From Rhizaria sp. SCN 62-66 (Eukaryota): DNA of 64,000 bases. The notes beneath the pieces were generated by a model, which worked only from the letters and a program-made list of their open reading frames with translations, did not search any database and had not been told where the DNA came from. Position numbers and translations under genes: made by a program. The stretch is from assembly GCA_001724265.1 (NCBI GenBank), contig MEDY01000223.1, positions 1 through 64,000 on the forward strand, written 5' to 3'. This document shows positions 16,806-21,164 of the stretch, in pieces (position 1 is the stretch's first letter; each line of letters opens with the position of its first letter).

Positions 16806-19800
16806 TTAAGCTTTGGGTTTCCCCCGGTAGTTCTGCAGTAGTGGGAACGCATGCTGACGTACGAACTGCAAAATATCAGGAGATGTATCCACAAGCCGCG
16901 CGCACGCCAGCGCCGCATTCTGCGCAGCCGGCTCCCAGCGGGGGTTATCGCGGCGCATTAAAATGAGCAAGCATGCGCCGACAGCGTGCAAGACGCCAAC
17001 GCCCTGCTGCAAACTACCGGACGCGGCCCTGCTTGTCCACATGGCGTCTGACAGCTGGAGCAGTGTGGTGAGCTCTTTCTCATGCTCCTTAAGCCTCTCA
17101 ACCTGAGCGGCACCAGCGAGAAACGCCCCTTGTGCTTCCAGCGCAGACCGGACGATGCGCGTCGACGACAGCACAGCGTTGCGCACAAGTGACGACGGTG
17201 CTGCAGTGAAGTGCTTGCCCCAGTCGGCCAGCAGGATCATCGGCGGCGGCACCTGTGCAATCTTGATCACCATCTGCGCGGCGTTCCCAGCCGTTTGCGG
17301 CGAAAACGAGTTTAGCGCAAGCGAGAGAAAGCCGGTGATGCCAGAGCTCGATGCGAGCACCACCACGTCGTGGAAGCTGCCTCGACCACGGTCGCTGAGC
17401 TAGCACAGCTCCACCGCCCGCGCCGCCGCGACAGCGCGCGCGACGCCCGTGGGCAGCGCGGCCAAAGGCGCTGGGAGCGAGGAACCGGGCGCTAGTCGCA
17501 TGAGGTCGACGTCCGGGGGAAGATTCGTCGCGCGCCGCCACTGCGCCATGAACTCCATGGTGAGGGGCACGGACTTGCCGCAGTTGTCCTTGGCGAGGGT
17601 CGATGCAGTCGCACGCACTTCGGGCAGCGCAGCGGTGGCGGCGGCCTTGGTGGTAACCGGCGCTGGCGGCGGGAACAGATCGAGCTCGCGGGAGGCCTGC
17701 TGCGGGTCGTGCTGGCACAGGATCGCGACGATACGGAAGCAATGGTCGCTGAGTGCGGTCAGCTGGGACAGCAGCGTCACGCGGCTAAGATGGTCCTTAC
17801 TCCCCAGAGAGCTGATCTGCGTGCCGAGCTCAGACGCAGGCATCGTGGCCGCGACTACCGCAGCGATTCCCGTGCCCAGCGTCAGCCCGACGCCGTTGCG
17901 GGCCAGCATGTCGTCGCGCACAGCCAAGTTGCCGGCGGTGAGGCGCGATAGCACGGCCACAACGCGCTCGAGCACCGAGACGTCCAGCCCCGCGCACGGC
18001 ACGGCGGACGGAGTATTGCCACCGGCCGGCGGCGGCGCAATCAGCGCGAACAGCGCCCCGGGCAGCGCGGGCGCGGCCCTAACGACGCGGTCTGCGAAAG
18101 CCGCCCCCGCGTCAAGCGCCAGGCGCAACAGCAGCCCCAGAGCGTCGGCGAGCAGCGCGATGTGGCTCATCGTGGTGCCCGTTGCCGTCGCCAGTGCGAT
18201 GTCGGGTTTGTTGCTCGCCGCGCGGTCCGCCGGCGACACGCTGAGAGCGGCCAGTGCGGCGCGCAGGGAGATGCGGGCGACGACTTCCAGGCCGCTGTGG
18301 TCGGGAGCATCGGTGTCGAGAGCGTCGGTGTCGAGAGCCTTGGCGGAAAGAGAGAGGTTGCTCTGCCCGGCGATGCTGCGGCACGTGAGGGGGTGCGATG
18401 ACACCGCCACGGTGAGCAGCTCAACCGCGGCGCGGTGCAACATAGCCGCAGACGCCGTAGACAGGTGCTGGAGCTGGCCCCCCACAGACAGGGCGCTCCC
18501 GGGAGGGAACCGAACGCCGTAGCGACTGAGGAAGCTCTGCACATATTCGCACCACAAACCGTCGGTGAAGGGCGCAGCGGCTAGCGCGGCGTAGGTGCTT
18601 TCGTTCTGAAGGGCGACCTGTTGCTCAAAGTCAAGCCGCTCCTTGGCTGCGGTGTGGGCGCGGCGCGCTACATCTAGCTTCGTCATCAGCTGTGACAGAT
18701 CGGCCTGATGCGCAGGTGACGACGACAACGACGATGATGATGCTGACGATGATGACGACTTGCCGCCCTTGCCGGTGTTTTTGTTATTCTTGCCTCCTTG
18801 CGTAGTGGGCTCATTCTTCCTCCGGCCTTCTTGCCTGAGCTGCTCGCTCAGTGCCTCGACCTCGCGTTGCAGTGGCGCGCAGTCTGCGTACGCGGCCGCG
18901 ACGGCGGGCACAGTCAGCAGCAGACGGTACTCATTCGCGGCGTTAACCAGTGCCGGCAGACCGACGCCGAAGCCCAGCTCCGGCCCTGCGACAGAGTGCT
19001 CGCGCGCTGCCACCTTCTGGCCGTCACAGGCCGACTGCAGAGCTCCGAGCATCGACGTGAGCAAACGACTCCCCGCGAGCCAGTCGTGCTTGGCTACCAT
19101 CTTCTGGGCAGGCGCGCTCTGGAGGAGGCATTTGGCCATGCTGAGCAGATAGTGGGTCGCTTCGCGCCGCACGAGTCGCTGGCCAGTCGGCAGCACCGAG
19201 GCGGAGCCGATGCGCCATGTGCGTGTGCCCTCATTGCTAATATCACTGTTGTTGTTGTTGTTGTTGTTGTTGTTGTTGTTGTTGTTGTTGTTGTTGTTGT
19301 TGTTGTTGTTGTTGTTGTTGTTGTTGTTGTTGTTGTTGTTGTTGTTGTTGTTGTTGTTGTTGTTGTTGTTGTTGTTGTTCCCGCCAGTGTTGCCCCTGGG
19401 AAGCTGCACGCGGGACAGCGCGTCTAGCGCGGACTCAGTAGACATATCCGACTGCAGGGCGGCGTCGGCCGCCATCACCAGCGTCTCCAGCACGTCGCTT
19501 CCGCGCTTCAGGCGGGCGTCCGCGCTCGTTTGCGCGTTCTCATTATTCGCATCATCAAAAGTCTCGGCGCAGTAGCGAGTCAAACCATCGCTCGCGATGG
19601 ACTGGCACACTGATTCCGATTGCACGATCGCGAGCAGTAGCCCCGTAGCGGCCTCGAGTGCGACGGCGATCGAGCTCAGCCAGGACTCGATGGGCGCCGA
19701 CAGCGCAGCGTCTGCGATGAACATGAGCGCGGTCCTGGTGTGGTCATCGGAGAAGCTCTCGCTATCGCCATCGTTGTAGTGTTCCATTCCCCGCAAATCG

Positions 19801-21164
19801 ATCTTGGTGAACGGCGCGTTGTAGGCGTGCACGTGCACTGCGCGCATGATGCCGTCTTCCAGTTGCAGCAGGTGGTGCACCAGGCGCGCCACGAGCCGCA
19901 CTGCGCCGAAGCGATACAAATCCTCGCATGCGCGGCCCGTTTGCGCCACCGAGCGCAGCGCAATAAGCGTGCGGACAAGAGTGACCCAGCGGGAGTCGAT
20001 GAACTGCGCCTGCTCATCGTCCGCCTGTGTGGCCCTTTCGAGCTCGCGTCCGATCAGCTGCCGCTGCAGGGGATTCACATCCGCTACAAGGACATGCAGC
20101 GCGGTCCACGTCATACGGTGCGCAGAGGCGTTGGCAACCGCGTTGACGGTCGGCAGCAAAGTGACAGCGACGAGGAGCGCGCGCGTCATGTCCCGGAGCA
20201 AACCAGACCCGATCATCCGGAAGTGGTCGTCGGGAGGCAGCGTAGCGAAGGCGTACATCGCAGCGGGCACCAGCAACATACGGTCAGCCCACTTGCTCCA
20301 CAAAACCACGTCTAGCACGCGCAACGCGTACGTCGCAACAAACGGCTCGTCGCGCTCGAGCATGTCCCTAAAGTTGCCTTCGTCGAGCTACGAAGTAAAC
20401 ATCAGGCGGTGGAGGTGTTCAATCATGTCGCGACTGTCCTCGATCGAGTACCCGTAGCGGTCGACGTCGTGCTCGTCAAAGCTCTCGCTTCCCGGCATAA
20501 GCTCCAGCATCTGTCCCAGATTCACGGATGGAATCACTGCGTAGCGCGACAGAGTCATGGACATGACCTGCATGTCACTCTTGATGCGCGCGCCCATATC
20601 TTCCGCCACACCAGGGATGTGTGCCAGCGCGGCAAACAGCGCCTCCAGCTCTTTCACAGGCACTTTGGCCAGCGCAGTCCGCGCAGGGCCGTCTCGTGCC
20701 GCGAACGCCGCCGCGGCCTCACTGTTCAGCACCGCGGCGAGACTGCGGCCGCCGGCGCGGGAGGAGCTCCAAGAGTTCAGGTGGTGAGCGTGGCTCACAG
20801 TGACGGCGTCAAAGTGCTGCAGGCGCAGCGACGCGTACGCGCGCGCCGCGCCGGAGAGCTCTTGCAGGCGAGTCTACATGAGGTTGCGGCGCTCAGCGCG
20901 CGCGATGTGGCGGGCAGCGGCGCGGGGGGCGATGAGAGCACCCGCGCGGCCGGCGTAAGCGTTGCGCCATATCACGTCATGAATAGAGCCGGCGTCGGCC
21001 TCGCTCTCACCGGACCCGGCAGCGGCGCAGTCGTGAGCGTTCATGCCGTGAAGGTTGTCGCCGCCGCTGTGGCCGACGCCGTGGGCGCCGCCGCTGTGGT
21101 CGATGTTATCGTCACTGTTGGAGCGAGCGACCGCACCATCCTTGGCGGACGTGGTGGTCGACAT
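16806..21164 (-). CDS. TTC12-like paralogue, copy 2, single exon (~1452 aa), lacking the Cys-rich and TPR regions; in-frame TAG at 20874-20876, 20388-20390 and 17400-17402
   Basis: Four ORF-track ORFs (20874-21173, 20388-20798, 17400-20363, 16806-17366) share one frame, separated only by single TAGs. Colinear with copies 1 and 3 (REHSVAGPELGFGVG, RDDMLARNG, CQHDPQQASREL, HAFPLLQNYRG). Ends in TAA. Confidence 0.75.
19248..19379. repeat. Perfect (GTT/AAC)~44 microsatellite encoding poly-Asn within copy 2
   Basis: Directly visible; in frame. Confidence 0.95.

Follow-up and report, generated by a model that had tools for sequence, protein, structure and literature searches.

In-frame TAG codons in a wastewater contig of a probable sainouroid: UAG as a likely but unproven sense codon, probably for glutamate

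When a long reading frame is broken by nothing except TAG triplets, it can be asked whether the gene is dying under the standard code or whether the triplet is being read as an amino acid. This question is raised by contig MEDY01000223.1 of the NCBI GenBank assembly GCA_001724265.1, deposited as Rhizaria sp. SCN 62-66, of which positions 1 to 64,000 (the window from here on) were analysed, and specifically by copy 2, the middle one of three tandem paralogous genes. It is proposed here, with a probability of roughly 0.6, that UAG is a rare sense codon in the nuclear genome of a probable sainouroid, most probably standing for glutamate (Glu), and that UAA and UGA remain stops. The TAG pattern itself is real and wider than copy 2; a new variant of the genetic code is likely but unproven.

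Frame 1 of the reverse strand of 16806-21164 comprises 1453 triplets, that is 1452 codons and a final TAA, and its only internal stops are three TAGs; each of the other five frames of the same segment contains at least 20 stops. A first-pass annotation made from the letters of the sequence had described such a frame, and the frame-by-frame stop count bears it out, as it does the statement that no frameshift, TAA or TGA occurs inside copy 2; the peptides that it quoted from copies 1, 2 and 3 are also correct. It had taken the TAGs for a peculiarity of copy 2, with no mechanism or amino acid proposed for them, and that view does not hold, since the TAGs are regional. Fifteen genes were modelled by hand (15,990 codons in total), and five of them, belonging to three gene families, carry nine in-frame TAGs (two in copy 1, three in copy 2, two in copy 3, one in a four-exon coiled-coil gene and one in a large coiled-coil gene), with no internal TAA, no internal TGA and no frameshift in any of the 15. 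All 15 genes end in a codon other than TAG (TAA 7, TGA 8). The GC content at third codon positions (GC3) of copy 2 is 0.79, to be compared with an intergenic GC of 0.405. TAGs also fall in the first exons of copies 1 and 3, and this region can be regarded as coding because P0009, a distant and intron-free family member of 1203 residues from another source, runs through it unbroken into the TPR domain. Were UAG read as sense, copy 2 would yield a whole protein of 1452 residues, a TPR-less and intron-less member of the tandem three-gene family.

Under the standard code, the three paralogues and the two coiled-coil genes would instead be recently dead or dying, with TAG arising as the commonest nonsense product of codons that end in G, the main rival explanation, which we consider unlikely. 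The earlier conclusion that copy 2 is no ordinary decaying pseudogene is favoured, but its argument from the presence of TAG alone is weak, as TAG accounts for 58-63% of the single-base nonsense changes possible in copy 2 and three TAGs out of three have a P of 0.19-0.25 under decay. The missing frameshifts weigh more for this gene, because their P is 0.02 if the indel:substitution ratio is taken to be 0.05, and 0.21 if it is taken to be 0.02. Across the five TAG-bearing genes, TAG makes up 51-81% of the expected nonsense changes, a share that suits decay, and yet nine TAGs out of nine have a joint P of 0.010-0.018. Nine nonsense codons in these genes would need about 320 substitutions, and the complete lack of frameshifts in their 8,397 codons has a P of 0.12 if one assumes 0.01 indels per substitution, of 0.013 with 0.02 and of 2e-5 with 0.05. 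Decay further requires that five of 15 neighbouring genes died together; these might, for example, be dispensable genes in an amoeba or, from a possible likeness to TTC12, flagellum-related ones. It gains some weight from copy 2 having lost about 500 codons, including those of the TPR domain, and from the ratio of nonsynonymous to synonymous substitution rates (dN/dS), which had been put forward as a check on copy 2. The whole-length branch dN/dS is highest for copy 2 (0.56, with 0.35 for copy 1 and 0.45 for copy 3), and over the C-terminal 361 codons the values are 0.30, 0.27 and 0.26 for copies 2, 1 and 3, figures that cannot detect recent decay because pairwise dS among the copies is already 0.9-1.2.

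As to the amino acid, an approximate likelihood test on eight sites, restricted to the seven residues that are one step from TAG, gives Glu 0.98, Lys 0.01, Gln 0.01 and about zero for Leu, Tyr and Trp, the share of Glu being slightly inflated, to the advantage of the glutamate assignment, by the normalisation of the coiled-coil site with family residue frequencies. Leu lies about 15 and Gln 4.6-4.7 log units below Glu in the same test, and an all-Glu model is better by 2.8-2.9 log units than the mixture of residues that nonsense precursors would leave, which speaks against decay. Division of a 20-residue test by background gives Glu 0.75 and Asp 0.21. Judging from the alignments, Glu or Asp stands opposite TAG more than any other near-cognate residue; there is one Gln among the residues aligned opposite TAGs, no TAG has Leu opposite it in the family columns, and the two poorly aligned linker sites have Ala and Gly. 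For the four-exon coiled-coil gene, P0004 (one hit among 240 candidates) aligns ungapped with 30 identities in 49 positions (61%) and has Glu opposite the TAG at 35839-35841. Searches with P0004 returned chance hits only in the PDB (E value 0.5 or worse) and a best score of 0.87, without a lead, in the Atlas. Leu (the exLh code, see below), Trp (the product of editing) and Tyr were rejected as meanings of TAG, as they fit badly in the likelihood tests.

The base that follows the codon bears on another possibility, namely that UAG is a leaky stop, read through by near-cognate tRNAs of the Gln, Lys or Tyr type, best before C, in weakly expressed genes that tolerate it, with no dedicated tRNA and a residue other than Glu. 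C occupies the +4 position in six of the nine in-frame TAGs and in none of the 15 true stops (Fisher P 0.0006, for a pattern found post hoc), and this share lies nearer to that of Gln codons (CAG, 0.42; P 0.12) than to that of GAG (0.28; P 0.017). In human cells a +4 C favours readthrough and a +4 purine favours termination (PMC7089771). The C bias is awkward for decay and congenial to a leaky stop, as are the rarity and clustering of TAG and the two copy-2 sites that fit another residue best (one Tyr, one Lys). A purine nevertheless stands at +4 in three of the nine sites, and Gln, Lys and Tyr fit 4.4-11 log units worse than Glu. With three successive stops in copy 2, moreover, ordinary readthrough rates would give almost no full-length protein, and the leaky stop is held to be improbable. 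A purine follows all 15 true stops (9 G, 6 A).

A further possibility is that the mature mRNA no longer contains the TAGs, either because A-to-I editing turns UAG into UGG (Trp) or because splicing uses TAG as a 3′ splice site. Many real introns do end in TAG (10 of the 27 acceptors listed), and the site at 45040-45042, the least secure of the nine, lacks a homologue and is preceded by a donor-like motif at a distance of 40 bases. Splicing does not explain the TAGs, because the GC upstream of the nine (0.52-0.85) is exon-like, introns having 0.29-0.52, and because only one site has a donor-like motif so placed as to keep the frame, over sequence conserved as protein. With regard to editing, Trp is the worst-fitting residue, and in the polyA run X5, from another study, a contig over 17340-17625 bridges the TAG at 17400-17402 with no other letter there and no editing seen; this amounts to a single RNA contig over a single TAG. 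Removal from the mRNA is regarded as very improbable on these grounds. Sequencing or assembly errors can be given hardly any credence. The sequences L001 and L002, which span all three copy-2 TAGs with no mismatches, may like the runs X1-X3 be the source of the window DNA, which is what can be said for errors; the same TAG is present in X5, and gene calls end at the first two TAGs of copy 2 on seven and three contigs, respectively, from several sources.

Read mapping covered four runs on 6000-19200, so that the first two TAGs of copy 2 and the whole of copy 3 lie outside it. The figures refer to the pieces listed, runs with a share below 0.2 were set aside (X9 excepted), and mapping depth cannot rank genes; two pieces were not counted, one from X4 that reaches 15636-15638 but has only 18 letters to one side of it, and one from X6 that ends at 17399. 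In run X9 the GTPase is represented by a fully spliced contig, and three of the pieces listed fall on copy 1. Depth is zero in the bins 9969-10409 and 15702-17024, and the pattern hints weakly that copy 1 is transcribed. RNA-library pieces on copies 1 and 2, with intergenic bins near zero, tell weakly against decay, and the lack of a spliced copy 1 transcript among the pieces listed tells for it. One low-depth contig of X5 (3.15) has four letters missing at 17654, inside copy 2, which may be an error or another organism.

Table 1. Genes, in-frame TAGs and the repeat tract of copy 2, in window coordinates
Feature	Position	Strand	Description
Copy 1	10164..16151	-	1947 codons, with TPR domain and two in-frame TAGs; one GT-AG intron of 144 nt at 15455-15598; ends TAA
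Copy 1 TAG, exon 1	15636..15638	-	Poorly aligned linker immediately before conserved motif
Copy 1 TAG, codon 1606	11190..11192	-	Homologue residues E, S, A; next base C
Copy 2	16806..21164	-	Single exon; 1452 codons; lineage-restricted all-helical family; ends TAA; no Pfam family
Copy 2 TAG 1, codon 97	20874..20876	-	Homologue residues R, Y, D; next base A
Copy 2 TAG 2, codon 259	20388..20390	-	Homologue residues N, G, T, E; next base C
Copy 2 TAG 3, codon 1255	17400..17402	-	In conserved C-terminal domain; homologue residues I, D, Q, K, A; next base C
Poly-Asn repeat (AAC)44 of copy 2	19247..19379	-	Perfect repeat; L001 version 12 bases (four units) shorter, frame kept
Copy 3	21851..28114	-	2017 codons, with TPR domain and two exon-1 TAGs; one GT-AG intron of 210 nt at 27292-27501; ends TGA
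Copy 3 TAG, exon 1 linker	27548..27550	-	A opposite in P0009
Copy 3 second TAG, exon 1	27506..27508	-	Directly after conserved Trp-Asp-Phe-Trp motif; D (copy 1), E (P0009) opposite; one-gap ambiguity
Four-exon coiled-coil gene	33885..36126	-	578 codons; TAG in exon 2 at 35839-35841, Glu opposite in P0004, ungapped; ends TGA
Large coiled-coil gene	45001..52366	+	2403 codons; TAG at 45040-45042, codon 14 after putative ATG; ends TAA
Arp2 gene	55326..57253	+	No in-frame TAG; ends TAA; used for placement

If the codon means glutamate, it accounts for about 1% of all Glu codons; no TAG occurs in those housekeeping genes that are strongly biased (Arp2 and those that we take to be Ran and LSG1-like). 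The rarity of UAG, its absence from these genes and its partiality to a following C suggest less efficient decoding than for GAG, with termination perhaps still a competitor; rarity and context bias of this kind would be expected of a young or incomplete reassignment. The decoder would most likely be a tRNA-Glu with the anticodon CUA, one change away from CUC, which would read UAG and not UAA. Once such a tRNA was present, GAG could drift to TAG by a single G-to-T change, and an eRF1 with poor recognition of UAG may assist. The CUA tRNA and the weakened eRF1 are suggested because of precedent, that is the tRNA-CUA of the ciliate Oligohymenophorea sp. PL0344 (PMC10553269) and the reasoning in PMC5304391. 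No tRNA gene was found in the 64 kb of the window.

Glutamate as a meaning of UAG occurs in other codes. Blastocrithidia is said to read UAR as Glu. Peritrich ciliates do likewise (PMC11687900), and in PL0344 UAG is Glu and UAA is Lys, with tRNA(CUA) genes most like tRNA-Glu (PMC10553269). All three share UAG=Glu with the window, and the mechanism of PL0344 is the one proposed above, but UAA is a sense codon in them too, whereas in the window it is never found in frame and ends seven of 15 genes. Indeed, UAG and UAA seldom change meaning separately, and where they do, the cases listed in these papers give Leu, Gln or Ser, or have UAA reassigned as well (PMC11687900, PMC10553269). Examples in PMC11687900 are UAG=Gln with UAA as stop in Iotanema spirale, Hartmannula sinica, Trochilia petrani and Protocruzia tuzeti, UAG=Leu in TARA phyllopharyngeans and UAG=Ser in Scotinosphaera; these resemble the window in that UAG and UAA are uncoupled and UAA is a stop, and they belong to unrelated lineages, none of them listed with Glu. 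The closest comparison by lineage is exLh, a rhizarian of the Sainouroidea with nuclear UAG=Leu and UAA and UGA as stops, in which UAG was counted 384 times in 71 genes, with an uneven spread over gene classes and a minimum in the genes for ribosomal proteins (Panek et al. 2017, PMC5304391). The window shares with exLh probably its group, as placed by Arp2, the restriction of in-frame stops to UAG, gene ends in UAA or UGA only, and the uneven use among gene classes; exLh is insect-dwelling, whereas the window organism is free-living in wastewater according to run labels. The literature searched, which left most subscription papers outside, held in its accessible portions no report of UAG=Glu with UAA as stop or of a second sainouroid code, and the available parts of PMC10770858 and PMC12376651 report no nuclear code change.

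A number of observations weigh against UAG as a codon for glutamate. Seven of the nine TAGs lie in the single paralogue family, the three genes of which contain 31.5% of all Glu codons (even use has a P of 0.006), and the ten genes other than the five are without any. The sites number nine, none of them at a hyperconserved column of a universal gene. The avoidance of TAG at gene ends is weak, its chance P being 0.04-0.21 for a TAG share of 0.2-0.1, and Guttulinopsis, which uses the standard code, also seldom ends genes with UAG, one Rosculus gene ending in it (PMC5304391). The choice of residue depends on the treatment of the data: in the 20-residue test on all sites, with composition uncorrected in an Ala-rich family, Ala receives 0.92 and Glu 0.03; on six well-aligned sites the values are Glu 0.46, Asp 0.30 and Ala 0.22; and family-only enrichment places Asp (0.52) above Glu (0.25). 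Two of the three sites of copy 2 are those mentioned above as fitting Tyr and Lys better. GAG forms 25% of the decay mixture, and one Glu opposite a TAG is compatible with decay because GAG is a common precursor of nonsense TAG. Run X5 also has a piece that enters an intron, and its contig over the TAG may be DNA or pre-mRNA. Finally, UAG is far less frequent in the window genes than in exLh, and the window has no tRNA gene.

The more specific version of the proposal, in which a wastewater sainouroid uses UAG=Glu with UAA and UGA as stops, represents a second independent reassignment of UAG in the Sainouroidea and is a living, rare and context-biased intermediate, is held tentatively, at slightly less than even odds. 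If true, UAG=Glu with UAA as stop would be an additional code variant, and the occurrence of two meanings of UAG in so small a group of Rhizaria would indicate a lineage in which the release factor gave up UAG first, allowing a direct test of codon-capture and ambiguous-intermediate models. Unlike exLh, the organism may be culturable, because it is found in bioreactor and activated-sludge runs. There is also a practical side, since standard gene calls chop these proteins into pieces in public sets.

The window is evidently eukaryotic, to judge from its GT-AG introns (135-553 bases, mostly starting with GTACG) and its genes, among them those for a PAQR protein, a GTPase, an MFS transporter, a cyclic nucleotide monophosphate (cNMP)-binding protein and Arp2; Ran, LSG1-like, ALG14 and ankyrin/EF-hand are assumed designations, based on our recognition of the sequences. 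Arp2 shares 78% identity with its counterpart in Guttulinopsis vulgaris, and in a FastTree tree of the 87 of 120 hits with at least 340 residues, only two of which bear organism names, it falls in a clade of seven that includes G. vulgaris (support 0.92). From this one gene, the host is probably a sainouroid (Sainouroidea, Rhizaria). Among 18 runs listed, 17 contain at least part of the window, and their labels are bioreactor, wastewater, activated sludge, and fuel cell or biocathode, one being unlabelled. Rosculus vilicus was rejected as the host, its genome-wide GC being 37.7% and that of the window 58% (PMC10770858).

The three tandem paralogues are about 44% identical. Copies 1 and 3 share a Cys-rich exon 1, an intron at the same position, a TPR domain and a long helical remainder, and copy 2 is without the N-terminal Cys-rich segment, the intron and the TPR domain (TPR_1 matches copies 1 and 3 and not copy 2). 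About 40 bases around the start codons are alike in copies 1 and 2, and the N-terminus of copy 2 resembles that of copy 1 before an in-frame jump passes over the first exon, the intron and the TPR domain; the loss in copy 2 is thus, on the evidence of the letters, an internal deletion and not a 5′ truncation. The family profile matches the TPR domains of SPAG1, HOP, RPAP3, SGT and CHIP (E values 7e-23 to 1e-10), and copies 1 and 3, unlike copy 2 with its missing TPR, resemble Hsp70/Hsp90 co-chaperone TPR proteins with a long helical C-terminal part, an architecture that we take to be of the UNC-45/TTC12 kind. Look-alikes of the C-terminal part in the Atlas are ARM-type clusters (0.92-0.94, leads only), and an AlphaFold model of the C-terminal domain of copy 2 has a predicted local distance difference test (pLDDT) score of 38, at which no fold is assignable.

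Homologues of the family are few. A profile of the C-terminal domain, searched against 1.84 billion representatives, found six clusters, three of them pieces of the window itself, and one further family cluster came from a separate search. Cluster look-ups, for which 20 sequences or pieces from the window were used and 11 had a record, contained no variant reading through a TAG. A metagenome scan with the family alignment gave 487 pattern-matching stretches, two of which were confirmed, both equal to the window except in repeat length; none of 12 candidates was confirmed in prokaryote genomes, and in the viral collection none of 19 for the family and none of one for Arp2. A comparable break in the gene of a relative may point to UAG as sense: the gene calls P0010/P0133 stop six columns before P0142 starts, and the column there holds E, D, A, A and S; the longest contig common to both sides has 152,831 bases.

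Elsewhere in the window, the Ran-like GTPase gene at 31659-33406 on the reverse strand has a first exon consisting of the start codon alone and a first intron of 553 bases, and it appears divergent in motifs that are usually near-invariant. The coiled-coil protein of 45001-52366 (forward strand) is very long and of low complexity, with heptad-like 21-base repeats, and a single-exon gene at 57921-63536 on the same strand encodes another low-complexity protein of 1871 codons with a weak N-terminal match to COG2 (E value 0.0007). Runs X4 and X5 contain, over 6187-9598, a second organism whose GTPase gene is about 90% identical and is found with the corresponding intron removed by splicing; no organism would be better suited for comparison at the TAG sites. 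Its own member of the family is perhaps represented by certain contigs that match copy 1 in part and copy 2 in part.

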